Assembly: GCA_963716725.1 (NCBI GenBank)
Contig: CAVQUB010000005.1
Location: 480,001-544,000 of the forward strand
Source: an uncultured delta proteobacterium
Lineage (GTDB): Bacteria; Myxococcota_A; Polyangia; Polyangiales; Polyangiaceae
Direction: 5' to 3'
DNA length: 64,000 bases
Below, piece after piece: positions 9,208 through 24,044 of this stretch. Each line of letters opens with the position of its first letter. Position 1 is the stretch's first letter. Both the position numbers and the translations under genes were made by a program. The notes under the pieces were generated by a model. That model had not been told where the DNA came from. It worked only from the letters and a program-made list of their open reading frames with translations, and searched no databases.

Positions 9208-10464
9208 ATGAACGGGGTCAAACTCTGGGGAGTTCGAGGCGTTGGACTGATCGCGGCAATGGCCATCGGCCAAGCCTGTTCTGGGGACGGCGCGCCCGCA
9301 GAGCGCGGTTCTGCCGGTCAAGTGTCTTCGCCCGTGCAGGTCGCGAGCGGCGGCGGCTGCACCGTCGAGTGGGTGCGGCTCAACTACGACACGCCCGGTA
9401 CCGACAGCGGTGAGTTCCTCGAGCTTCGGGTCACTAATTCCGGCTCGGCGGCGACTACGCTGGGAGCTTGCGGACTCGCCAGCATTCGATTGGTCAGCGA
9501 TTCGGACTGCGGCACCTATCGGACCATCGCGCTATCAGCCGTCGCCATTCCGAACGACGGCATCATCGTGATCTGCGACTCGACCCAGATCACGGGCGGA
9601 GTGTGTGACGTGGACGTCAGCGCGGGCGCCACCGGCTGGATCCAGAACGGCGCCCCGGACCACCTCAGCTTCGTGGCGGGTGACGACAGCGTCACGCTCC
9701 ACGCCACCTACGAGGGTTCCGCCGCGGGGTGTCTGCCCGACGGCGGCGCGGTCCCAACGCTGCTCCTCCAGACGGAAGACAACGCCGCCCCCGACATGGT
9801 CAACACCTGGTGCGACAACAAGTGGATCCTCCAGGATGTCACGGACTCGGGACCCGGCACGCCGCTCAAGTGTCCGGTCGACGGCGGCGCCGACGCCGGG
9901 GACGAAGGCGGGGACGCCACGGCCGACGCGACCGCCGACGCCACGGCCGACGCGACCGCCGATGCCACGGCTGACGCGACCGCCGATGCCACGGCTGACG
10001 CGACCGCCGATGCCACGGCTGACGCGACCGCCGATGCCACGGCTGACGCGACCGCCGACGCCACGGCTGACGCCACGGCTGACGCCACGGCTGACGCGAC
10101 CGCCGACGCCACGAGCGACGCGACCGCGACGGGTGGGACCGGTGGCACGGCAGGTGCCGGCGGCACGGCTGGAGCCGGTGGTACGGCAGGCGCGGGTGGC
10201 GCATCGGGCGGCAGCGGCGGCGCGAGCAGCGGCGGCGCGAGCAGCGGCGGCGCGAGCTTCGGCGGCGCGAGCAGCGGCGGCGCGAGCTTCGGCGGTACCG
10301 GTGGCAAGTCGGACGCCGGCGTGGGCGGGTCGAAGTTTTCCGGTGGTGGCTCTGACGACGACGGTGGCTGTGGCTGCGCGCTGCCGGGCCGTCAGCCCGC
10401 GTCTCCGGGTGCGTTTGCGCTCCTGGCGCTCGGACTCGCGGCGCTCTCGCGTCGCCGACGCTGA
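9208..10464 (+). CDS. MYXO-CTERM surface protein with lamin-tail-like N-terminal domain and DATA repeats
   Basis: NYDTPGTDSGEFLEL and IQNGAPD motifs; C-terminal DDDGGCGC..hydrophobic..RRRR sorting signal. Confidence 0.85.
   Translation: MNGVKLWGVRGVGLIAAMAIGQACSGDGAPAERGSAGQVSSPVQVASGGGCTVEWVRLNYDTPGTDSGEFLELRVTNSGSAATTLGACGLASIRLVSDSDCGTYRTIALSAVAIPNDGIIVICDSTQITGGVCDVDVSAGATGWIQNGAPDHLSFVAGDDSVTLHATYEGSAAGCLPDGGAVPTLLLQTEDNAAPDMVNTWCDNKWILQDVTDSGPGTPLKCPVDGGADAGDEGGDATADATADATADATADATADATADATADATADATADATADATADATADATADATADATADATADATSDATATGGTGGTAGAGGTAGAGGTAGAGGASGGSGGASSGGASSGGASFGGASSGGASFGGTGGKSDAGVGGSKFSGGGSDDDGGCGCALPGRQPASPGAFALLALGLAALSRRRR
9913..10128 (+). repeat. Coding tandem repeat, 18 x 12 nt (Asp-Ala-Thr-Ala)
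   Basis: GA(C/T)GC(C/G)AC(C/G)GC(C/T) units varying mainly at wobble positions; one DATS variant. Confidence 0.9.
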
Positions 10465-10465
10465 G

Positions 10466-10585
10466 CTACCTCACACGAAAGATCGCGGCGCCCTTCGCGG
10501 GCAAACTCAGCTTGCCGCCAGCGGCGTCGTCCGCGCATCCCGAGAGCGCCAGGCACAGGCTCAGACCAGCGCCGAGGCGTCTCAT
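10466..10585 (-). CDS. 39-aa micro-lipoprotein or truncated lipoprotein remnant coupled to the A2M gene
   Basis: ATG overlaps the A2M stop (ATGA); MRRLGAGLSLCLALSG-C signal peptide followed by only 22 residues after the Cys. Confidence 0.45.
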   Translation of the reverse strand: MRRLGAGLSLCLALSGCADDAAGGKLSLPAKGAAIFRVR

Positions 10586-13500
10586 TCGACGATCACTCGA
10601 TCGCCGGCGCCGCGCCCGAAGGTCTCGGGGTCGTACATTTCTTCGACCTTCGGCGGTGGCACCACGAACTCTCCGGGCGTCGTGGCTCGCGCGACGTAGG
10701 TGTAGTCGTAGACGCCCGAGTAGAGCAGCGAAGCGAAGGCCTCCACGCGTTCGTCCCGCATGTTCTGGTGTTCGTACCAGGCGCGGCTCCACCACCACGG
10801 CGTCTTCGATTTGCCCTCCTCGGCCTTGGCGTCCACGGGGATCGTGCCGGTGGTGGCCAAGGCCGGATTCAGGGGCTCGAGGCCAGCTGGCAAGGGATCG
10901 ACCAGCGCGACGTGATAGCGCCGCCCCGGCGCGACCATGGCCAGGCGCACGCGCACCAGGGACCCGGCTTTGACGCGCCATGTGCCGTCCGGATCGCGAC
11001 GCACGTCTTCGGGCTTCTCCGCGCCCTCGTAGAGTCGGCTCACCGAGAAGCCGTGCTCGGCGGGCGGTGGCCGAAGGTCCCGTGGTGCGTACTGCATCCC
11101 GAGGCGGTAGTAGAGGCGTCCATCGCCTTCTTTGGCGAGCACCAGAGCCGCGGGCTGCGGCAGCTCAGCGAGCATGGCCAGGGGAATGTCCACGTGCTTG
11201 CGATCGGTGGTGCGACCTTGAAACCGGTGCTCACTGGCGAGGCGAGTGCCGAGCCACGAACGCGCCGTGAAGTTCGGCGTCACCTTCTCGTAGGTCGTGA
11301 AATAGCGGTGCAGCGCGAGCAGCACGAACGCGTTCTCTTGAGTCGAGAGCCAACGCCCGCGCTTCTTGTGGGCGAGCAGACCCGACACGACCTTCGGGAT
11401 CACGTCGCTGTCCGGGCGGTCTTCGATCAACGCCTCGAGCAAGATGGAGTCGCTCCTCCGGCTCGATGCCAAGAGCACATGCTCGTCGCTCTCGTCGAAC
11501 TTCGTGACGAAGTGCGCCTTGCCCGCGGTCTCACTGGTCCGGTTGTCGACGTGGCGACGGATCTGTTCGACCTGGGCCGCCGATGCCCCGTCTTTGCTCA
11601 GAACCGGCAAGAGCCAGCCGAGGGCGTCCAGCGGCAGCTTTTCGACCCCGCCCGCCTCCGTGATCAGCGCGCGCGCTCGGGCGGGATCCCCATCCTTCGC
11701 CAGCCACCGCACGTTCAGAGCGTAAGCCTCGATCACGCGTCGTGCGTCCGGTGGATACCAGTTCGGGAAGTAGTTGCGGATCGTTCGGAGGAAGCTCAGC
11801 GCAGAGCCGCGCATCTCCTGAGGGAGCGAGTAGCCGGCCTTCTCTGCGCGGATCAGGGCGTGCGTCACATGAACGCTCACGTAGGGTACGGGCGCTCGAT
11901 CGCGCCGCCAGTAGTCCCAGCCGCCGGTGTAGCTCTGGCGGGTCTTGAGCTTCTCGATGTCGGCCTTCACCGTGGCGTTGAGCGCCTTGGGCGACGGCAG
12001 CCCCTCGGCGTTGAAGGCTTCGAGCACGTCGCGCAGAGCCGCGATCGACAGAATGCGCGACGAGATCTGCTCGTTGCACTCGAAGGGATATCGCACCAGG
12101 TAGAGCAGCGCGTCCGTCAGACCCTGGAGCGCTGTCGAAGAGGTCGTGATCTCGACGTTGCCGAATTCCTTGAAGACACCGCTCGGCAGCTTCACCGGCT
12201 GCGAGATGGCGCCTTGGTCGATCTGGCCGTAAGTCGCGAAGGCCTCGGTGGTCGCCGGCGTCCAGACCGGGAGCTCGATCTCGGAGGCGTCGTCTCCGGC
12301 GGCAGACACCGCCCCGACCTGCAGGCGCGCGCTGCCCGCGGACATGGCCGCCGCCGGGAACCTGACCTCCACGCGATCGTTGGCGGGCACGCTCACCCGC
12401 AGCGCGTTCGGTCCGGTCACCTTCAGGTTGTCCGCTCGAAACGCGACATCGACGCTGAGCGGGGTCGCGGTTTGGTTCTGCAGGACCACCGGTAGCGTGA
12501 AGCGATCGCCGAAGTTCAGGAAACGCGGAGCCGAAGGTCGGACCATCAGAGGCAGGCGTGCGGTGACCGCGCCTTCGCCGGATCCGAAGCGGTTCTCGCC
12601 GGAGGCGACCACCGCCATGATCCGGTACCGCGTCAGATTGTCGGGCAGCTTCACGGTGGCTTCCGCCCGCCCGCGAGCGTCGGTCACGAGCTTCGGCACG
12701 AACGCCGCCAGCGAGCCGAAGTCGGTGCGCATCGCGATGGGTTTGGGCTTGCCTTCCTTGCTTTTGTCGGCCCGTCGTTCCACCACGGATCCGGGCGGCG
12801 CTGGCGGCGGCGGCGGAGCCGTCATGGCGCGCCGCGTCGCTCCGGGCTTGGCGGCGGCGTAGCGGCCGCTTACGACCGAGGGGCTAAGCCCGCCCCCGCT
12901 CTTGAAAGGCATGTCCGGCGCGAAGCGCCCGTTCTGCTTCTTCGACTTCGCCTCGAGGTGATGCCGCGCCGTGTCCGGTCGCATCAACGCCACGTTGAGC
13001 CGGGTCTCGTAGTCCCGCACGCCAGCCCCGCGGGTCGGGTAAAAGACCTCGAGTGGATCCGGCAGGTCGTAGCCTGCGAGGGCGAGCACGCTCTCGTCCA
13101 CCGCAACCATGGCGAGGGAAGCGCCGCTGACCGGGTGTCCGCTGGAGTCGCTCACCTGGAGTGCAACGCGGGTCTTGCCGCCCGGCGAGAGTTCCTTCTT
13201 CTCGGGTGTGATGCGCACGCTGAGCGAGCGATCCTTCGGCGGGATCTTCAGCGTCGCGGCGCCCGACGCAAAGGCGGGTCGCTTGGGCAAGCTGAGGTCG
13301 GGCTCTCCTCGCTCGTTGTCCCGCGCAACAGCGCCCACGATATCCAGCTCAACCGTCACGTTGGGCAGCCACCGGTCCGAGAGCGGCAGCTTGATCGTGG
13401 ACGAGCGCCGCTCGAGGCGCACGCGTTCAATCTTGACCAGGCCATCCCGACGCACCGTGAGCAGACCTTCGGCCGGAGCAAAGGGGGCGACCACCAGGAT

Positions 13501-16500
13501 CTCCGCGGTGTCCGTCGGGCGATACTCGCGCTTGCCCGGCACCAGCTGCACCTTGGACCCGCGCAGCGTGGGGTTTTCGGGCGGGTCCTCCCCGAGCACC
13601 CACAGCTCGATCTGGGTCTGACTCGGCCGACCGTGAACGTCGGTCACCGTAGCCGTCACCCGGTGCAGGCCGCCGGCTCGCGTCGCCAGGATGCAGGTCA
13701 CTGACTCGGTCGTGCTGGTGACGGAGCAGGTCTCTGCCGGGCCGATGTCCTCTTCCGAGGTCGAGCCGTGCCAACGGGTAGTGACCCGTTCGAGCTTCAC
13801 GCCCACGGGCCGTCCAGCAATCGCGGTGCCGTCCAGATCGGTGACGATCATGTCGAGGTTCAAGCTCTTGCCCGCGGCGAGCACGGTGCTCTCCTCGCGC
13901 AACCCGACCGTGACGTTCGCGGGATGCACCAGCATGGTGGAGCGCGCCGTCCAGCTCTGTCGATTCACGTCCGTCACCGACGCTTCGAGATCGAGCTGCC
14001 GCGCGTACGCGGGTTCCAAGCCGTCGAAATCGACTCTGAGGCGATGTTGGCCGGCGGCGTCGGTCTTGGCTTTCCATTCCTCCCGCGCCGGGCGGTCTTT
14101 TTCGGACCGGCTCCACCACGACCAACGATTCGGCTTCCCGAAGTGGTAGCCCGCGCGGTTCGGCGGTACGAAGCTCGCGTCGGCGGCGCTCACGTTCCAC
14201 TCGACCTCCGCGTCGGGCAGTCCGCCGCCGGCAAAGTAGCTCGCGGACACCGTCCCGATCGCGTGCTTGCCGACGTAGTGCGGGCCTTCGGTGGATTGCG
14301 CCGTGACCTCGAACTCCGGCTTGCGGAACTCCTGCACCTGGAACGGGTGCCGGTGGCTCTCCCCATGGAATTGTCGAGCCTCGTCGAGTTCCAGCGCGAT
14401 GTGCGCGTTCCCGAGGTTGGCGGCCTTCGGAATGTCGAAGGCGAGGTGGAAGCCGCCGTCGGAGTCGACCGAGGTGCTGCCTTTCGCGATCTCGTTGCCC
14501 ATGGGTTCGTAGACTTCGAAGGTGACGCGGGTGGCGCTGCCCGCGGGCAGGCGCGTCACGTCACCGCTCTTGCCGGCTCCGGCAAGCCGCACGAAGCCCT
14601 TGGCGTTGACCCGCTCCCCGGGTTTGTACAGGTTGCGATCGTCGAACACGAACCAACGGACCCGATCGCTGATGGGTTGCGCGACGAAGGAACCGCCTCC
14701 GAGCCACACCAAATCGTCCGCCTGACGTCCGACCAATTGAGCCCCCTCGTTGACGAGCGTGAGGGTGGCGAGGCCATCAGTGCCGGTCTTCTGGCGACTG
14801 CCGCGCGGCTCGACCGTGACGTCGACGCCCGGCAGCGGTGTGCCGTCCGCGAGACGCGTGGCAAACACGTGTCCCGAGTCCGAGTCCGTGAACGCCGTCA
14901 GGCCGATCTTGGTGACCTGGAGCCAGACGCGAACCCACTGCCTCGAGCGGTAACCCCAACGATCGGGTGGCGGATGCGTTGGCGGCTCGACGATGGCGAG
15001 CACCTGTCCGACGCCGTTCTTCAGCGCCGGCGAGAGGTCGACGGAGGTTTCGGTGAGATCGTCGGCAACGCCCTTGACCTCCACCGTGCGATTCGAGATC
15101 AGCCGACCCGGTGGCGTTCCCAGCTTGCCTTCCCAATCCCAGTCCCGGCGCCATTTCTGGTAGCTCTCGAACTCGCTGGGGGTCACGGCGTAGAGCCGCA
15201 CCTTGAGGCGCGGGCGGTTGATGCTGAACACGCCGAGCTTGGGTCCGAAGCCCGGGTCGAGCACCACCATCTCGTCCTGCTCGGCGAAGAGGTACGGCTC
15301 CGCGGAGTCCACCTGGATCTCGAGCGTCGCCGCGGAGCCGAGGGTCTGACCAAACTGGTCTCCGAGCTCCGGGCCCACCGTGACTTGGTACTTGGTGCGC
15401 CCCTTGCTGCGCCCGCGGATCGCGATGTCGCTCCCGGATTGCTCGACGCGCATCTCGGGCAAGTTCGGAGCGACGCTGATCAACCGCTTGTCGAAGGTCT
15501 TGGGGTCGAGCGGGTTGGTGAAGCGCACCGACCATGCAGCGAGCGGCGGGCAGTGTTCGTCCCAACCGCAACTGATCCGCTCGGCCTTGAGGGGGCCGAA
15601 GGTGCGGAAGTTGAAGGACTGATCCTTCGCGGTGAGCCGTTTGCCTTCCGCGCTCGGCGTGCCGGCCTTGAAGACGGCGTGCAGCTGCGTGTTCTTGGGC
15701 AGCGGGCTCAGGGGCTTGAGGGCAATGAAGCGGTCTTTCTTGGCGCGATCCCGGGCCGAGCGAGCGTCCTGCGACCGCTCGATCTCGTCCTCGTGGGCCA
15801 GCCTCACCGGAAACGAAGCTTGCCCAGCCCGCAGCGCAAAAGCGGCGAGCACCGCGTTCCGGTCGATGCGCTGGTCGAAGGTGGCAAACATCATCGGCTC
15901 GAGCTCCGACGGATCACCCCAAGGTCGCGGGGAGAAGCTCTGAACGTCCACGGTCGGAGTGGCGAAGCGCCAGCTCTTGGCCTGCGCGAAGGCTTGTCCG
16001 TTTGCTGAGCGTGTCCCCGCCGGGACCTCGACCTGATACTCCGTGGCCATCGGGAGGCGCTCGTCGCTGGGATCGAAGACCAGCGTTTGCGTTCCGACCC
16101 AACGCCAGCGCCCGGGTGGTTCGGGCACGAGGCGCACCGGCACGCCCTTCTTGGCGAGATCGTCGTGCGAGGTCAGCTCGACCATGGGCTCCGAGAAGGT
16201 CACGCTCAAGCTCGGCGCCATGCTCACTTCGCCTTCCGGTTGGAAGCGCGTGACTTCGACCGGACCCTTGGCGGTCGGGGTCGCCGGCGGCGGCGCGCCG
16301 CGTGGTGGGAAGTCCGTCTTGACGGTCTCGCCGGGGCGCGGCGGCGCCATGGACTTCTCCCGCAGCGCGAAGGCCTTCTTCTCCGCCGCGACCTTGAAGG
16401 GCGGCAGTCTCGCCATCAGGCGGTCCGCATCCGCGCCGGTCAGCGGAGACGCTGGTGCGGACTTGGCGCGCGAAGGGCGTTCGGGATCGGCGTCACTCAG

Positions 16501-16665
16501 GCGAAAGCCGAGGCCAGACTTCGAGACGCGCCACACCACCTTCTCTTCGGCCAGCGCAGTCGGTGGTTCGGCCTTCTTCACGGGCGCCACCGGCGGCGGC
16601 GTTCCCGGACAGGCGGCGGCCAAGAGCGCGAGCAACACGACCAGCGGTGCGGGTGAGCGTTTCAT
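10582..16665 (-). CDS. Bacterial alpha-2-macroglobulin family lipoprotein
   Basis: 2027 aa; lipobox LAAA-C; DRNLYKPGE, QEFRKPEF, KLPDNLTRYR, thioester YPFECNEQ, W..TQEN, C-terminal EEMYDPE. Confidence 0.93.
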   Translation of the reverse strand: MKRSPAPLVVLLALLAAACPGTPPPVAPVKKAEPPTALAEEKVVWRVSKSGLGFRLSDADPERPSRAKSAPASPLTGADADRLMARLPPFKVAAEKKAFALREKSMAPPRPGETVKTDFPPRGAPPPATPTAKGPVEVTRFQPEGEVSMAPSLSVTFSEPMVELTSHDDLAKKGVPVRLVPEPPGRWRWVGTQTLVFDPSDERLPMATEYQVEVPAGTRSANGQAFAQAKSWRFATPTVDVQSFSPRPWGDPSELEPMMFATFDQRIDRNAVLAAFALRAGQASFPVRLAHEDEIERSQDARSARDRAKKDRFIALKPLSPLPKNTQLHAVFKAGTPSAEGKRLTAKDQSFNFRTFGPLKAERISCGWDEHCPPLAAWSVRFTNPLDPKTFDKRLISVAPNLPEMRVEQSGSDIAIRGRSKGRTKYQVTVGPELGDQFGQTLGSAATLEIQVDSAEPYLFAEQDEMVVLDPGFGPKLGVFSINRPRLKVRLYAVTPSEFESYQKWRRDWDWEGKLGTPPGRLISNRTVEVKGVADDLTETSVDLSPALKNGVGQVLAIVEPPTHPPPDRWGYRSRQWVRVWLQVTKIGLTAFTDSDSGHVFATRLADGTPLPGVDVTVEPRGSRQKTGTDGLATLTLVNEGAQLVGRQADDLVWLGGGSFVAQPISDRVRWFVFDDRNLYKPGERVNAKGFVRLAGAGKSGDVTRLPAGSATRVTFEVYEPMGNEIAKGSTSVDSDGGFHLAFDIPKAANLGNAHIALELDEARQFHGESHRHPFQVQEFRKPEFEVTAQSTEGPHYVGKHAIGTVSASYFAGGGLPDAEVEWNVSAADASFVPPNRAGYHFGKPNRWSWWSRSEKDRPAREEWKAKTDAAGQHRLRVDFDGLEPAYARQLDLEASVTDVNRQSWTARSTMLVHPANVTVGLREESTVLAAGKSLNLDMIVTDLDGTAIAGRPVGVKLERVTTRWHGSTSEEDIGPAETCSVTSTTESVTCILATRAGGLHRVTATVTDVHGRPSQTQIELWVLGEDPPENPTLRGSKVQLVPGKREYRPTDTAEILVVAPFAPAEGLLTVRRDGLVKIERVRLERRSSTIKLPLSDRWLPNVTVELDIVGAVARDNERGEPDLSLPKRPAFASGAATLKIPPKDRSLSVRITPEKKELSPGGKTRVALQVSDSSGHPVSGASLAMVAVDESVLALAGYDLPDPLEVFYPTRGAGVRDYETRLNVALMRPDTARHHLEAKSKKQNGRFAPDMPFKSGGGLSPSVVSGRYAAAKPGATRRAMTAPPPPPAPPGSVVERRADKSKEGKPKPIAMRTDFGSLAAFVPKLVTDARGRAEATVKLPDNLTRYRIMAVVASGENRFGSGEGAVTARLPLMVRPSAPRFLNFGDRFTLPVVLQNQTATPLSVDVAFRADNLKVTGPNALRVSVPANDRVEVRFPAAAMSAGSARLQVGAVSAAGDDASEIELPVWTPATTEAFATYGQIDQGAISQPVKLPSGVFKEFGNVEITTSSTALQGLTDALLYLVRYPFECNEQISSRILSIAALRDVLEAFNAEGLPSPKALNATVKADIEKLKTRQSYTGGWDYWRRDRAPVPYVSVHVTHALIRAEKAGYSLPQEMRGSALSFLRTIRNYFPNWYPPDARRVIEAYALNVRWLAKDGDPARARALITEAGGVEKLPLDALGWLLPVLSKDGASAAQVEQIRRHVDNRTSETAGKAHFVTKFDESDEHVLLASSRRSDSILLEALIEDRPDSDVIPKVVSGLLAHKKRGRWLSTQENAFVLLALHRYFTTYEKVTPNFTARSWLGTRLASEHRFQGRTTDRKHVDIPLAMLAELPQPAALVLAKEGDGRLYYRLGMQYAPRDLRPPPAEHGFSVSRLYEGAEKPEDVRRDPDGTWRVKAGSLVRVRLAMVAPGRRYHVALVDPLPAGLEPLNPALATTGTIPVDAKAEEGKSKTPWWWSRAWYEHQNMRDERVEAFASLLYSGVYDYTYVARATTPGEFVVPPPKVEEMYDPETFGRGAGDRVIVE

Positions 16666-16965: not shown

Positions 16966-17110
16966 GGCGGTCCAGGCTGTGTACCGCACAAAACCTGCGT
17001 GAGCTTGAAGGGTCGCTGGCCTTGCTGCTAAATGGCCCTCCCCGCGTCGGGAATATGACGTTACGTACGCTTCATGCGTTGCCGGGCCGCGCCCGGCCAG
17101 CGAGCGATCT

Positions 17111-18121
17111 GTGCCCACCGAGTTGTTGAAGAACCCCTTCGTTCACGGCGCCGTCTACGGCGTCTTGATCGTCACCGTGCTGATGACCATCACGGCGTGG
17201 AGCATCTGGTTCGAGCGCAAGTTCGCCGGTCGCATGCAGAGTCGCGTCGGGCCCACGCTGGTCGGCCCCTTTGGTTTGCTGCAGCCCCTCGCCGACGCGG
17301 TGAAGCTCCTCCAGAAAGAGGACATCGTCCCGGCCGCCGCTGACCGCACGCTCTTCAATCTGGCGCCGCCGCTGACGGTTCTCTTCGCGCTGGCCACCGC
17401 GGCCGTGATCCCGTTTGGCCCCGAGGTGATCGCTGCGGATCTCGACATCGGTGTGCTCTGGGTTCTCGCGATGGGCGGGCTCACGGTGTTCCCGGTTTGG
17501 ATCGCGGGCTGGGCCAGCAACAACAAGTACGCGCTGCTGGGCGGGATGCGCGCGGTCGCCCAGGGTATCTCCTACGAGATCCCGCTCGTGCTCGCCGCGC
17601 TCGTGCCGGTCACCCTCGCCGGATCGATGAGCATTTCGGACATTGTGCGCTACCAAGAGCAGCACGGCTGGATCGTGGGCTTCCCGCCGGGCCCGGGCTT
17701 GATCGCTTTTCTGATCTTCTTCATGGCATCGCTGGCGGAGGCCAACCGCATCCCATTCGACATCCCCGAGGCCGAGAGCGAGCTCATCGCAGGTGTGACG
17801 ACCGAGTACACTGGAATGAAGTTCGGGCTGTTCTACTTGGCCGAGTACCTGCACACGTTGATCGTGAGCGCGCTCGGCGCCGCGCTCTTCTTTGGCGGCT
17901 GGGCGGGCCCGATGGGACTCGCGCCCGGGCTCCACTGGATGGTGATCAAGTCGCTGCTGCTGTTCTTCGTGGTTTTTTGGGTGCGCTGGACGTTCCTGCG
18001 CTTCCGTGCCGATCAGCTGATGAGCTTGTGCTGGAAGTACCTGGTCCCGGCGGGCCTCGTGCTGGTCATGCTCGCCGCCTTCTGGGTTCACTACGGCGTC
18101 GGCAAAGCGGGAACGAACTGA
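17111..18121 (+). CDS. nuoH: NADH-quinone oxidoreductase subunit H
   Basis: ERKFAGRMQSRVGP, GLLQPLADAVKLLQKE, GWASNNKY and RIPFDIPEAESEL motifs. Confidence 0.96.
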   Translation: MPTELLKNPFVHGAVYGVLIVTVLMTITAWSIWFERKFAGRMQSRVGPTLVGPFGLLQPLADAVKLLQKEDIVPAAADRTLFNLAPPLTVLFALATAAVIPFGPEVIAADLDIGVLWVLAMGGLTVFPVWIAGWASNNKYALLGGMRAVAQGISYEIPLVLAALVPVTLAGSMSISDIVRYQEQHGWIVGFPPGPGLIAFLIFFMASLAEANRIPFDIPEAESELIAGVTTEYTGMKFGLFYLAEYLHTLIVSALGAALFFGGWAGPMGLAPGLHWMVIKSLLLFFVVFWVRWTFLRFRADQLMSLCWKYLVPAGLVLVMLAAFWVHYGVGKAGTN

Positions 18122-19077
18122 TGGGCTACCTGGGCGACAGCCTGCGCGCCCTGGCGCTCACGCTGAAGAACGCGTTTCGCCAACCGGTGACCGTGCGATT
18201 TCCCGCCGAGAAAAGGCAACGTGCGGCGCGCTTCCGCACCAGCTTCGCGCTGCTCCACGACGCGGAGGGTGACGAGGCCTGCGTGGGTTGCCTGCAATGC
18301 GAGAAGGTCTGCCCTTCGCAGGTCATCACCATCGTGGTCGAGAAGCGCGACTCCCCGGTGACTCAGAAGCGGCGCGGCTACGCCACGGATTTCACCCTCG
18401 ATCTCAACGCTTGCATCTACTGTGAGCTGTGCGTCCAGGTCTGTCCGACCGACGCCATCGTGATGACGCGCGAGGCCGAAGTGCCGGCGTACTCTCGGGA
18501 GGCACTCGTGCTCACGATGGACCGGCTCTACGCCAACGAGAAGAACAAGCCGCTGGCGTGGGGCACCGCGACGAACCTGATGGAGATGCAGAACCCGAAG
18601 CGGGGTCAGGCCGCGGAGGCACCCAAGCCGAAAGCGGAGCCTACGTCGCCCGCCAAGCCCGCGTCGCCTGCCAAGCCCGCGTCGCCTGCCAAGCCCGCGT
18701 CGCCTGCCAAGCCCGCGTCGCCGGCGGAGCCTGCGTCGCCCGCGGGGGCTGCGTCGCCGGCGGAGGCTGCGTCGCCGGCGGAGACTGCGTCGCCCGGGCC
18801 GCCTGCGTCGCCTGCGTCGCCCGCGTCGCCTGCCAAGCCTGCGTCGCCCGGGTCGCCTGCGTCGCCCGGGTCGCCCGCGTCGCCCGCGTCGCCTGCGTCG
18901 CCCGCGGAGCCTGCGTCGCCCGCGGAGCCTGCGTTGCCCGCGGAGCCTGCGTCGCCCGCGGAGCCTGCGTCGCTCGCGGAGCCTGCGTCGCCTGGCAAGC
19001 CTGCGTCGCCCGCGGAGAGCAAGCCGACAGCGGAGAGCAAGCCGACAGGCGAAACCGATCCGCCTCGGGCCGAGTGA
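18121..19077 (+). CDS. nuoI: NADH-quinone oxidoreductase subunit I with a long Pro/Ala/Ser repeat tail
   Basis: TGATG overlap with nuoH; CVGCLQCEKVCP and CIYCELCVQVCP ferredoxin motifs; about 140-aa hexapeptide repeat tail. Confidence 0.93.
   Translation: MGYLGDSLRALALTLKNAFRQPVTVRFPAEKRQRAARFRTSFALLHDAEGDEACVGCLQCEKVCPSQVITIVVEKRDSPVTQKRRGYATDFTLDLNACIYCELCVQVCPTDAIVMTREAEVPAYSREALVLTMDRLYANEKNKPLAWGTATNLMEMQNPKRGQAAEAPKPKAEPTSPAKPASPAKPASPAKPASPAKPASPAEPASPAGAASPAEAASPAETASPGPPASPASPASPAKPASPGSPASPGSPASPASPASPAEPASPAEPALPAEPASPAEPASLAEPASPGKPASPAESKPTAESKPTGETDPPRAE
18637..19050 (+). repeat. 18-nt tandem array 1: 21 units of consensus GAGCCTGCGTCGCCCGCG plus 2 units GAGAGCAAGCCGACAG(CG/GC), in frame in nuoI
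   Basis: Exact 18-nt register from 18637 to 19050; encodes xPASPA-type hexapeptides, then ESKPT(A/G). Confidence 0.9.
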
Positions 19078-19096
19078 TGCACTCGGGCGGCGCGTG

Positions 19097-20143
19097 CTAG
19101 TCGAAGCCTGGCGGCGCCACCGGGTGCTCGGGCCAGGCGGACAGGCGAGCCGCGGACGGTCCGGGAGTGGCCGTCGGATCGAGCAGTCCGTAGCGGCGCC
19201 ACCCGATCCGCAACAGCCCGACGCGCGGCGGCTGGATCCCCGTAGGCAGCTCGACGCATGGGTCGCGATCCAAGGCGAGCGCGCGCACCAGCCCCCGCGT
19301 CGATCTCCAGCCGTCGAAGTGTCGTGCTGACGAGAATGGGTCGAGGAAGTCGGTTGGCAGTTGCCTGCCCACCTGCGCTTGATGCCGCCGGAAGTTGGCC
19401 AGCACGTAAAGCAAAGCACTCCGCACCTCGAGCGGTGTCCGAAGCGGACGAGCGTAGTACCGACCCGTGAATACAGGGCCACGCGTTCCCATGAGCGCGT
19501 TTAGGCCGCGCGCAATCCGAACACAGAGGCCTTTCATTGCCCGCGAGAGGGCGACTCGATCCGGAGCTTCGGCGATCAGGTGCAAGTGGTTGCCCTGCAC
19601 GGAGTAGTGCACCAAGCGAAACCCGAACCGTTCGCAGCTCCCCGCAAACGCACGGCGCAGCGCCTTCAGACCACGTTTGCTGCGCAAGTTCCAGACGCGG
19701 TCGAGCACGCGAAGCGTTACATGGACCGGGTGCGCCGATCGATGCGCCGGGCGCTCTCGGTGAGGCACGGGGCGACGTGCCCCCGGCTTGCGACCGGCGC
19801 CCGCGCGGCGCCCGCCGTGACCGTGACCAGGATCGCCCGTGCGATCGGCCTGCGCGCGGCGCCTGTCGTGTCCGGAGTCGCCTGCGCGCCCGGAGTCGCG
19901 TGCGCGCCCAGAATCGCCTGCGCGCCTGGAATCGCCTGCGCGCCTGGAATCGCCTGCGCGCCCGGAATCGCCTGCGCGCCTGGAATCGCCTGCGCGCCCG
20001 AAGTCGCCTGCGCGCCTGGAATCGCCTGCGCGCGCGCTCGGGGGCGGCCCCGAGTCGCCGGATCGCCTGCGCGAAGGGCGGACTGGAGCCGAGCGAGCGG
20101 CATTCAGACGGGCCGACGGCCGAGTTGGAGACGGATTCACCAC
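19097..20143 (-). mobile_element. REP-associated tyrosine transposase-like HUH/Y1 nuclease (RAYT/TnpA-REP, IS200-related); start uncertain
   Basis: HGGRRAGAGRKP leader, PVHVTLR, HYSVQGNHLHLI (HUH), VFTGRY, catalytic YVLAN, DPFSSA. Candidate GTG starts at 20143/20140; the frame stays open to 20527. Confidence 0.85.
19874..20035 (+). repeat. 18-nt tandem array 2: 9 units of consensus GGA(A/G)TCGCCTGCGCGCC(C/T)
   Basis: Counted directly; degenerate copies near 19843 and 20060; reads RAGDS(R/G) in the RAYT frame. Confidence 0.92.
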
Positions 20144-20207
20144 TTGATTAGGGCGGACATTAGCGCCGCCGGCGCCATCTCGCAAGCCCAGAGTGACCGG
20201 CCCAGCG

Positions 20208-20545
20208 TGAGTCGGGTGCGAGCCCTGAGCCGAGTGCGAGCCCTGAGCCGAGTGCGAGCCCTGAGCCGGGTGCGAGCCGTGGGTCGGGTGCGAGCCGTGA
20301 GCCGGGTGCGAGCCGTGAGCCGAGTGCGAGCCCTGAGCCGAGTGCGAGCCCTGAGCCGAGTGCGAGCCCTGAGCCGAGTGCGAGCCCTGAGCCGAGTGCG
20401 AGCCCTGAGCCGAGTGCGAGCCCTGAGCCGAGTGCGAGCCCTGAGCCGAGTGCGAGCCCTGAGCCGAGTGCAAGCCGTGAGCCGCGTGCGAGCCCTGAGC
20501 CGCGTGCGAGCCCTGAGCCGCGTGCAAGCCGTGAGCCGCGAGCCG
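20208..20545 (+). repeat. 18-nt tandem array 3: 18 full units of consensus TGAGCCGAGTGCGAGCCC plus a partial unit
   Basis: Exact register from 20208 to 20531; identical central units, diverged units toward both ends; no spacers. Confidence 0.95.
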
Positions 20546-20558
20546 CGGGTCGGTTGCG

Positions 20559-21555
20559 TCAGCGCCGTGCGAGCACCCGCGAGATACTCGGGACGACGTC
20601 TGCCCGGCCGGCCATCAACATGTTGAGCTCGACCGATCCGCAGAATCCGCAACCGGCGCAATCGAATCCAGGCAGCTCGCTCAGGGCGCGAGCCACGCCG
20701 TGGGTCCGGACGTTCGGTGCCGGCGCGTCGTATCGGATGCGATCGCAGGGCACAACGTCGCCGTTGGCTTCGATCATCGCGAATACCCGCCCCGCCCAGC
20801 AGTCGAGTCCGCGAATCGCTGGCCAACTCGCGATGTGTCGGAGCCCCCCCAGGCTGTTGCGCAGGCGGCGCGGGTCGCGGAGCTTGGTCCGAACGAGCAG
20901 CGCGATGGCGCGGCGATAGTCGCTGGCGTCCGGAAAGAGGTCCTCGCAAACCCGGTCGGCCGAGTGCTCGGTGGCCATCACGGGCTGGAAGGCCACGAAC
21001 GTGTCGTGCTTCCGGGCGAGTTCGATCGCGAACGGGATTTCGGAGAGGTTCTCGCGGGTCATGGTGAAGGCGAACGAGAACTTCACGCCCAGCTCCTTCA
21101 AGACGGCGATGCCGCTCGTGAGCTCGGCGAACGCACCCGGTCGGTCGCGGATGTGGTCGTGCACCGGCGGGCTGCCATCCAGCGAGAGCTTCACCAGTTC
21201 GAGCGGGCGAAGCGCAGCTCGTCGTTCCGAGAACAAGTAGCCCGTGGAGTTGAGCTCGGTGGCGATGCCTTGGTCGACCGCGGCGCGGACTATCTCTGCG
21301 AGATTCTCGGCGCAACGTTGGCTCTCCGCCGGAGAGCGAGAGGCGCCGGGCCCCGAGCCGCGACAGATCCGCGATCACGGTGCGCCATTCTTCGGTCGAG
21401 AGTTCCTCGGTTGGGGTCGACCAAAAGGAGCAAAACCGGCAGCGCGAATGGCAGCGATTGTTCAAGTTGATGCGGACGGCAACGGGAATGCGGCGCCCCA
21501 GGGCACGAACCTTCGCCATGTCGACCAGGGCAGCGACCTTGTCCGAGGCCCTCAT
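20559..21555 (-). pseudogene. Radical SAM protein with Twitch/SPASM-like C-terminus, interrupted by one extra base near 21304 (possible sequencing error)
   Basis: MRASDK..CHSRCRFC..SGGEPTLRR in one frame; LAEIVRAA..ELNSTG..SLDG..CWAG..PC..CAGCGFC in the next. Removing one A from CGAGAATCTC restores RDLAEI. Confidence 0.85.
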
Positions 21556-23309
21556 TGTCCTGCGGGCCTGCGCGTGGTGCTCGCCAACGCCAACGCGGGC
21601 GCGCGCAGGCCGTCGAAGAAGGTCTGGTAGCGCCCGAACGCAGGCACGGAGCCGCCGCGCGTGGGGCCGAGCTCGGCCACTCGATCCCGTGTCAGCGCGG
21701 GATCGGGCCCAGCACGCTGGGCCTCCTCGCGGGCCAGCGTGAGCGCGCCGCCGAGCCCGCCGCCGCGGGCAAACACGCCATGCCGCGCGCCGGGGCTGGC
21801 GACCGTGATCGCCGCTTCCGCGAAGGTCATCAGCGCACGGGCCAACCGGCGTGCGATCCCCGCCGTCGTCGCCGGCCTGAGGGGCCGCAGCGCGAGTTGC
21901 GCGCCGACGCGCGCGTAGCGGCCCAGTTCCTCGAGGCTCTGAACGCGCCGCAGCATCGAGAGCGCATAGCGCGGTCGCGAATAGAAACGCAGGTACGCTC
22001 GCCGCGCCATGTGTTCGAGTTCGGCGCGCTCGAGCTTCGTCCACGGGGTGGGGAGCAGGTGCTCGCCCACGCGCCCCGCCACGTACTCGCGCCAATAGTC
22101 GATGCCGAGTTCCTCGATGACGTGGCGCCGTTCGAGTTCGGTATGGGGCTTGATGACGGCGATCTGGTACTGCGCGTAGGCGAGCGGCAACGACAGCGAC
22201 AAATCCACGGTGCGGCGCACGCTCGCCCTCGTGTCGCCGGGCGCTCCGAGAATGAAGAATCCCAGCGCCATGATGCCCGCTTCGTGGACCACGGCCAGCG
22301 TCTTTCCCAGATTCGTGGAGGCAGACTGACCTTTCATCATGTGCTTGAGCACGTCGTCGTCGCCGCTCTCGATGCCGAAGTAGATCCGCCGACATCCGCC
22401 CTCCGAGAGCGTTTCGATGAGTTCGTGGTCCGCGCCGCTCTTGCTGCCGTGGAAACTCAGGGAATCCACCCGGGAACGACATGACCAGATGACGTCGAGC
22501 TTGCGGCGTCGCACTTCACGGGCAATGTCCAGAGCGCGCTGACGGTCATGGAGCATCAAGGGGTCGAACCAGTCGATCTCGCGAATGCCGAGCGCGATGC
22601 ACTCTTGCATCTCGTCGACCACTTGTTCAGCTGTGCGAGCGTCCCACCCGCTCTGCCGCATGCAGCAGAATGTGCACGGGTACGGGCAGCCAATCTCGCT
22701 CATGCCGACGGTGAAGCTCCTGCGCTGCGAGACGTGGGAGTAGTAAAGACGATTGTCGAAGATGCTCCGATCCGGGGTCGGGTAGTCCCGGAAACGTCGG
22801 CGCTCGCCCGCGAAGGTGTGCCGAAGCTCGCCGCCGCGTCGCCAGAACAAATCCGCGACCTGCTCGTAGCCGCGGCCTCGTTCGAACGCGGGCAAGAAGG
22901 CCGGCAAGAAGTCGTGCCCCTCGGCGCCGCACAGGTAGTCGAAGCCGCCTTGGTCGACGATCTCGTGGGGAAATGCCTTGGCTTCGTAGCCGCCCACCAG
23001 CGTGGGCAGCCCGGTACGCTGCTTGATGGGCTTCGACCATGCGTACAGGTCGCGAATGGTCTGACAGGCGTGGGCGGAGAACGCCACGAGGTCGGGGCTG
23101 AACTCCGAGATCTCCCGCACGACTTGGTCGAGGGACTTCTTCTCGGCGGGCGCGTCCCAGAGGCGGACCTGCCAGCCGGCGGCCTTCGCGCCGCGCGCCG
23201 CCCATCCGAAGCCGATGTGCGGGAACAAACCGAACTCGTCATCGACGGTCGGCAGGTTCTCGTTGAACGACTTGGCGAAAAACGGGGGGTAGACGAGGGC
23301 GAGCTTCAC
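21552..23309 (-). CDS. Cobalamin-binding radical SAM protein (class B methylase-like)
   Basis: N-terminal B12-binding-like region (PDLVAFS, LVGG); GCPYPCTFC; FGIESGDD; GFFILGAPGDT. Confidence 0.9.
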   Translation of the reverse strand: MKLALVYPPFFAKSFNENLPTVDDEFGLFPHIGFGWAARGAKAAGWQVRLWDAPAEKKSLDQVVREISEFSPDLVAFSAHACQTIRDLYAWSKPIKQRTGLPTLVGGYEAKAFPHEIVDQGGFDYLCGAEGHDFLPAFLPAFERGRGYEQVADLFWRRGGELRHTFAGERRRFRDYPTPDRSIFDNRLYYSHVSQRRSFTVGMSEIGCPYPCTFCCMRQSGWDARTAEQVVDEMQECIALGIREIDWFDPLMLHDRQRALDIAREVRRRKLDVIWSCRSRVDSLSFHGSKSGADHELIETLSEGGCRRIYFGIESGDDDVLKHMMKGQSASTNLGKTLAVVHEAGIMALGFFILGAPGDTRASVRRTVDLSLSLPLAYAQYQIAVIKPHTELERRHVIEELGIDYWREYVAGRVGEHLLPTPWTKLERAELEHMARRAYLRFYSRPRYALSMLRRVQSLEELGRYARVGAQLALRPLRPATTAGIARRLARALMTFAEAAITVASPGARHGVFARGGGLGGALTLAREEAQRAGPDPALTRDRVAELGPTRGGSVPAFGRYQTFFDGLRAPALALASTTRRPAGQ

Positions 23310-23324
23310 GAGTCGACCGTGCGC

Positions 23325-24044
23325 TCAGCGTACACTGGGCCGGGGCGCTGCGCTTGGTGCTCGGCGGCCGAGCTCGCGGAGCGCGCGAATGGCCACCAGC
23401 GCCCAAGCCGCGTAAAACGCGACCTGAAAGAAGCCCAGCGCGCCGCCGATGGCATCGCCCGCGCCGGCGCGAGGAACGTAGCCGAGCCCTCGTTCCAGCA
23501 GCGGAAGGCCGTCGATTACCACCGTTACGATCGCTGCCACGAAGAATGAAACGCCTTCGACGGTGTGCGAACTCGCGGGTGAGCACCGCGCCCACAGCGC
23601 CCGAACCCGGGCAAATGGCAGCAAGGGAAGCCCAAAGAACAACACCATTGGGCTGCTCATCCAGATCAGCGCCCAACCCAGCACCGAAGCGTGGGTCGCC
23701 TGAGCGTTGTGAAAGTTGGGCGAGCCGCCGGTGATCGTTGCGACCAAGCTGTGTCCCAGGTCGAGGCCGTACACCGCGCCCCAGTCGATCTCCTCTTGGA
23801 ATGTCGCCGTCAGGTAGACGACCACTGCCATCGCCAACCCGCGGGCCGCGCCCGCCGCCCGGGCCGCCACCCAGAGCCACAGCGTGGTTGTCAGCGCCAG
23901 CAGCAGGTGCCCAGCGTGCTCAATGGGTCCCTCCTTCGCCGCGAGGCGAAGCCAGAGCTCCGGCGCCGCGAGCACCACGGCGAAGTACATTGCGACCATC
24001 GCAGTGAACAGCTTTGCGAACGGCAGGTCGAAGAGCCTTCGCAT
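23325..24044 (-). CDS. Polytopic membrane protein, hypothetical
   Basis: About six hydrophobic segments; KEGPIE, EEIDWG and NFHN motifs. Confidence 0.7.
   Translation of the reverse strand: MRRLFDLPFAKLFTAMVAMYFAVVLAAPELWLRLAAKEGPIEHAGHLLLALTTTLWLWVAARAAGAARGLAMAVVVYLTATFQEEIDWGAVYGLDLGHSLVATITGGSPNFHNAQATHASVLGWALIWMSSPMVLFFGLPLLPFARVRALWARCSPASSHTVEGVSFFVAAIVTVVIDGLPLLERGLGYVPRAGAGDAIGGALGFFQVAFYAAWALVAIRALRELGRRAPSAAPRPSVR

Follow-up and report, generated by a model that had tools for sequence, protein, structure and literature searches.

Three tandem arrays with a period of 18 nt lie within 2 kb of one another, around and inside the gene for a RAYT-like Y1/HUH nuclease, in the 64,000-nt stretch of DNA analysed here (the window; C5:480001-544000 of genome assembly G000, which comprises 7.89 Mb in 35 contigs at 67.8% GC). 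The locus raises the question of whether the arrays and the enzyme form one system. The original prediction, made from the letters of the window, had proposed that they may, with a nuclease that seeds, amplifies or recognises 18-mers which can be absorbed into neighbouring open reading frames (ORFs). The arrays were found to be three different things, and the practical lesson for the window is that a seemingly single system resolved into a protein tail (array 1, in NuoI), an in-gene expansion (array 2, in the Y1 gene) and one non-coding flank array (array 3). The Y1 gene is single copy, selectively maintained and domesticated-like; it belongs to a very large clade of RAYT/TIRYT-like HUH enzymes from Myxococcota and Planctomycetota, the genes of which are typically flanked by non-coding tandem arrays. 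On balance, array 3 is taken to be the local form of such a flank array, on which the enzyme would act as single-stranded DNA (ssDNA).

Tandem arrays were detected with Tandem Repeats Finder (TRF), and window coordinates are used throughout. The elements on which the argument turns are as follows.

18634..19048, plus strand: array 1, 21.3 + 2.1 units of 18 nt, coding (TRF and translation)
19097..20143, minus strand: Y1/HUH gene (P0121, 348 aa), start GTG at 20143 or 20140, Pfam Y1_Tnp
19860..20033, minus strand: array 2, 9.6 units of 18 nt, in frame in the Y1 gene (TRF and translation)
20034..20207, minus strand: spacer between arrays 3 and 2, with a conserved AT-richer block, the Y1 start and the first ~35 arm codons
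20208..20538, no strand assigned: array 3, 18.4 units of 18 nt, non-coding, 94% identity (TRF)

Four period-18 rows were returned by TRF for the locus, each with 0% indels: 18634-19017 (21.3 copies, 86% matches, score 432), 19012-19048 (a second unit, 2.1 copies, 100% matches), 19860-20033 (9.6 copies, 89% matches) and 20208-20538 (18.4 copies, 94% matches, score 543). These rows agree within a few bases with the three arrays and the unit counts of the original prediction. Contigs from four other studies contain the locus at 98-100% identity, with arrays 2 and 3 represented in part; these are k-mer assemblies, from which copy numbers are not verifiable. One of them, a 1279-nt contig from a 2015 wastewater run, spans the Y1 gene at about 98% identity and skips exactly 36 nt (two units of array 2; 19965-20002) and 306 nt (17 units of array 3; 20207-20514).

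Array 3 is non-coding and lies upstream of the Y1 gene. It occupies most of the 417-nt spacer between the Y1 start and the stop codon (20559-20561) of the next gene upstream:

20559..21480, minus strand: radical-SAM/SPASM gene (Pfam SPASM; NCBIfam rSAM/SPASM families below their cut-offs)

The same position is occupied in G003, the genome of a sister species, by an array of 19-nt period (9.7 copies), its start 8 nt past the SPASM stop and its end 77 nt short of the Y1 ATG; with this period no regular coding repeat is possible there, and the array is read as the sister-species instance of the flank arrays of the clade. No such array was present in G004 and G005, two genomes of the same genus with loci that lack the Y1 gene.

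The enzyme encoded beside array 3 carries the following motifs.

19819-19784, minus strand: N-terminal arm motif HGGRRAGAGRKP of the Y1 gene
19591-19580, minus strand: HUH motif NHLH, intact
19408-19394, minus strand: catalytic-tyrosine motif YVLAN, intact

The intact RAYT-like Y1/HUH enzyme that had been predicted was thereby recovered. The minus-strand ORF 19097-20527 matched Pfam PF01797 (Y1_Tnp) with 27.7 bits (cut-off 23), and the Y1 gene, which is single copy in the source genome, scored 31.1 bits in a six-frame search of that genome. The only other Y1_Tnp match there (C5:165574-165909, L001) has a classical IS200-like score of 74.2 bits, and the period-18 arrays listed for the genome include none within 20 kb of this match. 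The two histidines of the HUH motif (H81 and H83) and the catalytic tyrosine (Y141) are invariant across 63 aligned homologs, the consensus of which reads YVLxNxRRH with a nearly invariant N and no P. An AlphaFold2 model was obtained for a 243-residue domain query that begins just before the HGG motif of the arm (mean predicted local distance difference test, pLDDT, 90.0; predicted template-modelling score, pTM, 0.81; core pLDDT 96-98). A Foldseek search with this model gave 29 PDB matches at E<=0.001, and all those listed are Y1 transposases: the top match was E. coli TnpA-REP (4ER8 chain A; E 2e-5; TM score 0.63 by target length), and IS200, IS608 and ISDra2 TnpA came next (ranks 2-29, E 2.7e-5 to 8e-4). 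A sequence-profile search of the PDB with the Y1 protein returned 0 matches at E<=1.

The gene is under purifying selection: the ratio of nonsynonymous to synonymous substitution rates (dN/dS) against the sister species is 0.093, with dS saturated at 2.1, and the neighbouring genes give 0.075-0.16. It was found in one of six other genomes of the same genus, at the syntenic position in G003, and gain or loss must therefore have occurred. The enzyme is read as a maintained, domesticated-like member of a clade outside the RAYT subclasses described in the main text of PMC6006769, the supplements of which may include members.

Whether array 3 belongs to the enzyme was approached through the family. 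A search with the Y1 domain gave 4600 proteins at E<=0.001 among 8000 candidates scored; most have 200-290 aa, and proteins of the clade are named RayT at the Joint Genome Institute and DUF1568 in older NCBI records. Several homologs, among them P0055 and P0057, belong to the cultivable Anaeromyxobacter dehalogenans 2CP-1. Arrays of at least three copies were counted in the 10-kb flanks of 80 homolog loci (set 1). Their density upstream of the gene was 5.3 per 10 kb at 0-300 nt (12 in 22.7 kb) and 3.4 at 300-600 nt, and downstream 4.2 and 3.5 at the same distances, over a background of 0.3-0.4 per 10 kb at 2-10 kb. Non-coding arrays were also normalised to non-coding DNA by means of a coding mask that is a crude heuristic based on GC content at third codon positions (GC3). 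On this basis, 25 arrays fell in the 50.3 kb within 600 bp (4.97 per 10 kb) and 5 in the 103.2 kb beyond 1.5 kb (0.48 per 10 kb). Among non-coding gaps of at least 300 nt, an array was present in 20 of the 59 adjoining the transposase gene versus 7 of the 92 others (odds ratio 6.2, p 6e-5). When one locus per genome was used (42 genomes), 17 arrays were counted both in the 46.3 kb within 600 bp and in the 459 kb beyond 1.5 kb, which makes the density ratio 9.9 (binomial p 1e-9); a proximal array was present at 12 of the 42 loci. A replicate set of 62 metagenome loci held 13 arrays in 54.6 kb within 600 bp versus 7 in 120.9 kb beyond. As a mobile-element control, DDE_Tnp_1 loci were taken from 41 genomes of the same order and Y1-clade loci were fetched alike: the former had 3 arrays in 97.6 kb (0.31 per 10 kb; 2 of 30 loci) and the latter 13 in 70.2 kb (1.85 per 10 kb; 8 of 21 loci).

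Arrays with a wide range of periods thus show a 4-10-fold enrichment beside Y1-clade genes and none beside DDE transposases. The predicted link of the family to flanking tandem arrays was in this way upheld by the one-locus-per-genome, long-gap and DDE comparisons, and the part of it that did not stand is the period: near the homologs periods span 4-224 nt, and among the 37 arrays located within 600 bp only 4 have a period of 18. Upstream flank arrays at 130-1000 nt were seen to be skewed to periods divisible by three (11 of the 16 arrays of set 1 and 9 of the 13 from the replicate sets), most of them outside any supported coding frame.

Genomes with several copies of the gene show what these flanks can contain. 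The Y1-gene copies of such genomes have flanks in common beyond the ORF, and inverted flank repeats of up to 170 nt were found in 14 of the 67 homolog loci with at least 400 bp on both flanks; five Planctomycetota copies have inverted repeats of 89-170 nt, in four of them of 144-170 nt. At one locus (L038) a 63-nt upstream array is the amplified form of a module that other copies in the assembly hold once per side, inverted. In genome G065 a 45-nt array (21 copies) lies upstream of one Y1 copy and a 47-nt array (12 copies) downstream of a second; each array is the reverse complement of the other, and the two genes are only 68% identical at the DNA level. Their unit family forms arrays at four loci of G065, and at two of these no Y1 gene lies within 1.5 kb. 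The L049 and L064 arrays are related in inverted orientation. Because of these modules and inverted repeats, at least part of the clade is seen to behave like the REPtrons and TIRtrons of Di Nocera et al. (PMC3733652), with head-to-tail amplification.

The G065 arrays without a Y1 gene within 1.5 kb include large satellite-like ones of 38- and 46-nt units (L213 1356-2850 and L214 1478-1661), which reach 25.6 copies and 1178 bp and have a core in common with the arrays that adjoin two Y1 genes of this genome. In a Planctomycetota assembly, L096 and L099 are two complete Y1 elements that follow one another head to tail at a distance of about 1.66 kb, both with inverted flank repeats of 144-149 nt and with a 7-nt microsatellite (TCGCTTC, 7-12 copies) about 400 nt downstream of the gene.

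The favoured reading of array 3, as a flank array of this clade on which the enzyme acts, builds on the anatomy of the locus, the coding status of the arrays, an enrichment that extends across the family and is not seen at DDE transposases, the flank modules of other genomes, the fold and purifying selection; from these we infer that the enzyme recognizes and cleaves the array. It would bind one array strand while this is single-stranded at the replication fork, its catalytic tyrosine would nick at a fixed position within a unit, and the cut end would be rejoined to the equivalent position of another unit. Since nicking and rejoining would take place between equivalent positions, whole units would be gained or lost and the register would stay exact. 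Reading-frame selection would hold arrays 1 and 2 at a multiple of three, 18 nt being the commonest period of the genome.

A competing explanation, doubtful but of some weight, is that the arrays are minisatellites made by replication slippage or unequal crossover in a GC-rich, slippage-prone genome, and that their association with Y1 genes arises from long, weakly constrained non-coding remnants of old mobile elements, with the enzyme uninvolved. The source genome holds 634 arrays (at least three copies, overlapping TRF rows merged) versus two Y1 genes, and the gaps adjoining the transposase gene are longer than the controls (median 670 versus 470 nt). Such an origin would not by itself account for an enrichment that persists after non-coding normalisation and restriction to long gaps, for the lower density in DDE flanks of the same order, for related units beside divergent Y1 copies of one genome (sometimes inverted on opposite sides) or for the related unit family arrayed at loci that lack a Y1 gene.

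Other results favour slippage or otherwise count against the involvement of the enzyme, and they are collected here. The units of the locus are local: the dispersed copies for which the original prediction had suggested a search were absent from the source genome for arrays 2 and 3 at <=1 mismatch, and the array-1 unit gave a single copy at that threshold, with matches at two mismatches at chance level. When arrays 1-3 and the 19-mer array of G003 were folded as ssDNA, each on both strands, z values of -0.9 to +5.0 were obtained and no hairpin propensity was seen. No terminal inverted repeat (TIR) was found around the Y1 gene in the source genome or in G003; the inverted repeats seen around the gene are weak (71-86% complementary over 14-26 nt) and none is better than 87%. 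Orthologous loci hold unrelated units: the array-3 unit and the 19-mer of the sister species align with a score of 7, the null mean over 445 other array units being 11.4, so that no conserved recognition motif is visible. A strand polarity seen in set 1 (G>C in 16 of 16 upstream arrays, C>G in 18 of 25 downstream arrays) did not replicate in independent sets (G>C in 6 of 13 and 6 of 10), and neither did the oriented k-mers TGCG, GTGCG, GGCTC and GCTCC. The per-genome sign test was not significant (16 versus 10, with 8 ties), a proximal array is present at only about a third of the homolog loci, and the coding mask behind the non-coding normalisation is a coarse one. The 36- and 306-nt differences of the wastewater contig may represent collapse in k-mer assembly or, alternatively, an allele. 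Literature searches gave no experiment that ties any member of the clade to a DNA substrate.

The favoured reading gains or loses further ground by comparison with known systems. RAYT-REP is the best-studied case of a domesticated transposase that lives with its own non-autonomous repeats, and to our knowledge the known partners of RAYTs are only palindromic repetitive extragenic sequences (REPs) and, less well characterized, long TIRs. The window resembles the RAYT/TnpA-REP system (the REPtron) in that the modelled Y1/HUH fold matches 4ER8 best, in that the gene has one copy, keeps its syntenic position in two species and is under purifying selection, and in that non-coding repeats cluster beside the gene. 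BIME-2 elements, as the main text of Nunvar 2010 (PMC2817692) describes them, are tandem reiterations of REP pairs. The differences are that the window locus has no palindromic REP, GT(A/G)G foot or dispersed unit, that its protein reads Y-x3-N-F (Y-V-L-A-N-F) and not the class 2 signature Y-x3-N-P given in the main text of Quentin 2018 (PMC6006769), that it scores 33.3 bits against NCBIfam NF047646 REP_Tyr_transpos (cut-off 80), and that it has an additional conserved N-terminal Gly/Arg arm and C-terminal region. Dispersal of a cognate repeat was not seen in the source genome; in G065 one unit family is present at four loci. The earlier statement that palindromic REPs, tnpB and spacers are lacking holds, as none of them was found at the locus or, for spacers, in the arrays, and as ssDNA folds of the arrays gave z values between -0.9 and +1.8.

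TIRYTs, the enzymes of TIRtrons, are RAYT-like genes without REPs that have other repeats in their flanks according to the main text of Di Nocera et al. 2013 (PMC3733652), and most of them are assigned to subclass 2.1 in that of Quentin et al. 2018 (PMC6006769). The inverted flank repeats of 14 of the 67 homolog loci, and the arrays that are amplified TIR modules, recall this system. Neither the window nor the G003 ortholog has a TIR, however, and the flank repeats of the Y1 clade are head-to-tail arrays of short units. The C-terminal helix-turn-helix described for subclass 2.1 was not found in the window protein by Pfam, Y1_Tnp being its only Pfam match at E<=0.01. Myxococcota has 0 occurrences in the main text of PMC3733652. 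For subclass 2.4, the main text of PMC6006769 reports tnpA-REP genes with in-frame REP insertions in a peripheral, tolerant part of the protein. Array 2, which lies in the N-terminal arm with the frame unbroken, is comparable to these insertions as there described and differs from them in that it consists of 18-nt units in tandem, precedes the first beta-strand and has a unit that is no known cognate repeat. The IS200/IS605 TnpA proteins (IS608, ISDra2) have the fold, as modelled, and the catalytic residues in common with the window protein, which scores 18.3 bits against NCBIfam NF033573 transpos_IS200 (cut-off 55) and is roughly 2.5 times the length of their 125-152-residue chains; its gene is single copy and has neither subterminal hairpins nor tnpB.

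Literature searches gave no description of the Y1 clade with tandem arrays, although the supplements of PMC3733652, PMC2817692 and PMC6006769 may list members. It is tentatively proposed that the DUF1568-type Y1/HUH enzymes of Myxococcota and Planctomycetota might form a RAYT-like system with head-to-tail arrays (units of 4 to about 60 nt) as cognate DNA, in which the enzyme could expand, contract and occasionally disperse the arrays by nicking and rejoining ssDNA units and could place them in frame in its own gene. If this were true, bacteria would have gained an enzyme-driven way to make and resize minisatellites, and the unusual repeat load seen in Myxococcota genomes would be explained in part. 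The window locus itself is a degenerate, single-copy example, the interest lying in the association of the clade with arrays, which has been tested against controls.

Array 2 is an in-frame expansion within the disordered N-terminal arm of the Y1 enzyme. Its units translate as RAGDS(R/G) and lengthen the stretch from the start codon to the HGG motif by about 58 aa, so that the first ~35 residues are separated from the nearly invariant sequence HGGxRxGAGRKP; in translation, no ATG, GTG or TTG codon lies between the array and this motif. The first 20 residues of the domain query have a pLDDT of 57-61, and the insertion is therefore placed in a flexible arm. The ortholog in G003 has 255 aa and an ATG start, is 73-76% identical to the window protein and contains no repeat. 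Alignment of whole upstream regions with MAFFT misaligned the arrays and was replaced by a sub-region alignment, in which the AT-richer block around the G003 ATG is conserved in the window and this ATG aligns with the GTG at 20140. The N-termini of other homologs vary in length and have no RAGDS-type repeat. At 5 of 80 homolog loci the 130 nt that precede the HGG motif contain arrays, six in total, and all six have periods divisible by three.

Array 1 belongs to a different gene, convergent to the first:

18121..19077, plus strand: nuoI (318 aa), two-[4Fe-4S] ferredoxin core, Pfam Fer4 families

The gene lies directly 3' of nuoH and scores 109.4 bits against the NCBIfam NuoI family TIGR01971, slightly below the cut-off of 113. 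From about 18598 onwards its product is a tail rich in Pro, Ala, Lys, Glu and Ser, in which array 1 is translated as hexapeptides of the PA(K/E)PAS type. Orthologs of nuoI that adjoin nuoH were located in G003, G004 and G005. The tail carries a period-18 array in all three, of 18.6 units in G003, which has the Y1 gene, and of 17.1 units in G004 and 5.1 units in G005, both of which lack it (no genome match at E<=1e-20, none at the locus at 1e-5). In a further genome, G001, the contig terminates inside a period-18 array (at least 7.9 units) 48 nt past the SPASM gene, and a genome search at E<=1e-20 gave no Y1 gene. In G002, nuoI and the SPASM gene are not neighbours. As the array is present in G004, G005 and G001 without the Y1 gene, it is independent of the nuclease. 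The units vary across species (peptides AEAKPA or KPAAEP), which indicates that the tail turns over quickly. Array 1 is the fast-evolving C-terminal hexapeptide tail of NuoI and is not linked to the Y1 gene. The G003 tail (L025 8740-9077) was itself irregular: its 18-nt unit reads AEAKPA and, after a frame slip, GGSEAC, the array has 11% indels and the ORF continues into the convergent Y1 gene, which may be an assembly problem or a genuine frameshifted tail.

These results bear on the full model of the original prediction, in which all three arrays are products of a nuclease that seeds and amplifies frame-preserving 18-mers, and ORFs such as nuoI absorb them. The shared period of the arrays, their grouping (no other site in the source genome has three period-18 arrays inside 2 kb, the Poisson expectation being 0.063 triplets), the in-frame position of arrays 2 and 3 relative to the Y1 ORF and a 13/14 stretch common to arrays 1 and 2 on the plus strand would agree with it, this last pair being the best of the unit comparisons and borderline (score 15, reached by 5.8% of null units). 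The model is nevertheless very improbable. It is contradicted for array 1 by the NuoI tails of genomes without a Y1 gene, nothing was found that supports absorption of arrays into neighbouring ORFs, and the 18-nt period fails as a property of the enzyme: with 126 of the 634 arrays, period 18 is the commonest in the source genome, ahead of 9 and 15, and is found far from any Y1 gene, the upstream array of the ortholog has period 19, and few of the homolog-flank arrays have period 18. It was also noted that 589 of the 634 arrays (93%) have a period divisible by three and that many units translate to Gly/Ser/Ala-rich hexapeptides.

Translation of array 3, as a (SAQGSH)n extension of the Y1 protein from TTG 20527 (a 476-aa ORF) or as a repeat peptide for radical-SAM/SPASM enzymes, is hardly credible, for although no stop codon interrupts the minus-strand frame from 20527 across both arrays to the Y1 domain, the GC3 of array 3 in that frame is 0.84, and the frame of the gene is open through the array in 5 of the 11 homolog loci with upstream arrays of periods divisible by three, this openness is not significantly above that of other frames (5 of 11 versus 4 of 22), the conserved start codon lies downstream of array 3 and the period-19 counterpart in the sister species cannot encode a regular repeat. 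The repeat-peptide precursor was rejected, as no stop codon precedes the Y1 gene and a separate peptide is therefore impossible, and as genomes with the radical-SAM cluster and without the Y1 gene have no such array.

With array 3 retained as a non-coding flank array, the surroundings of the locus can be completed. The neighbours of the Y1 gene, identified by Pfam and NCBIfam, are nuoH, nuoI, the radical-SAM/SPASM gene and a B12-radical-SAM gene. A search of 17000-23500 with Rfam gave 0 matches at E<=1, and a promoter and terminator scan gave nothing exceeding shuffled sequences. The SPASM gene is read in two frames, with a shift near 21305 (window 21150-21420, minus strand): CxxxCxxC through EPTLRR lies in one frame and the continuation LAEIVRAAVD... 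in another. Comparison of three-frame translations showed the ortholog in G003 to be a single intact ORF, and the shift is either a 1-nt assembly error or the mark of a pseudogene. Two more period-18 arrays lie in the window far from the Y1 gene, one at 5820-5958 (C5:485820-485958; 7.7 copies) and the other at 10139-10200 (C5:490139-490200; 3.4 copies), the latter beside or just beyond the end of a 2027-aa ORF (10582-16665).

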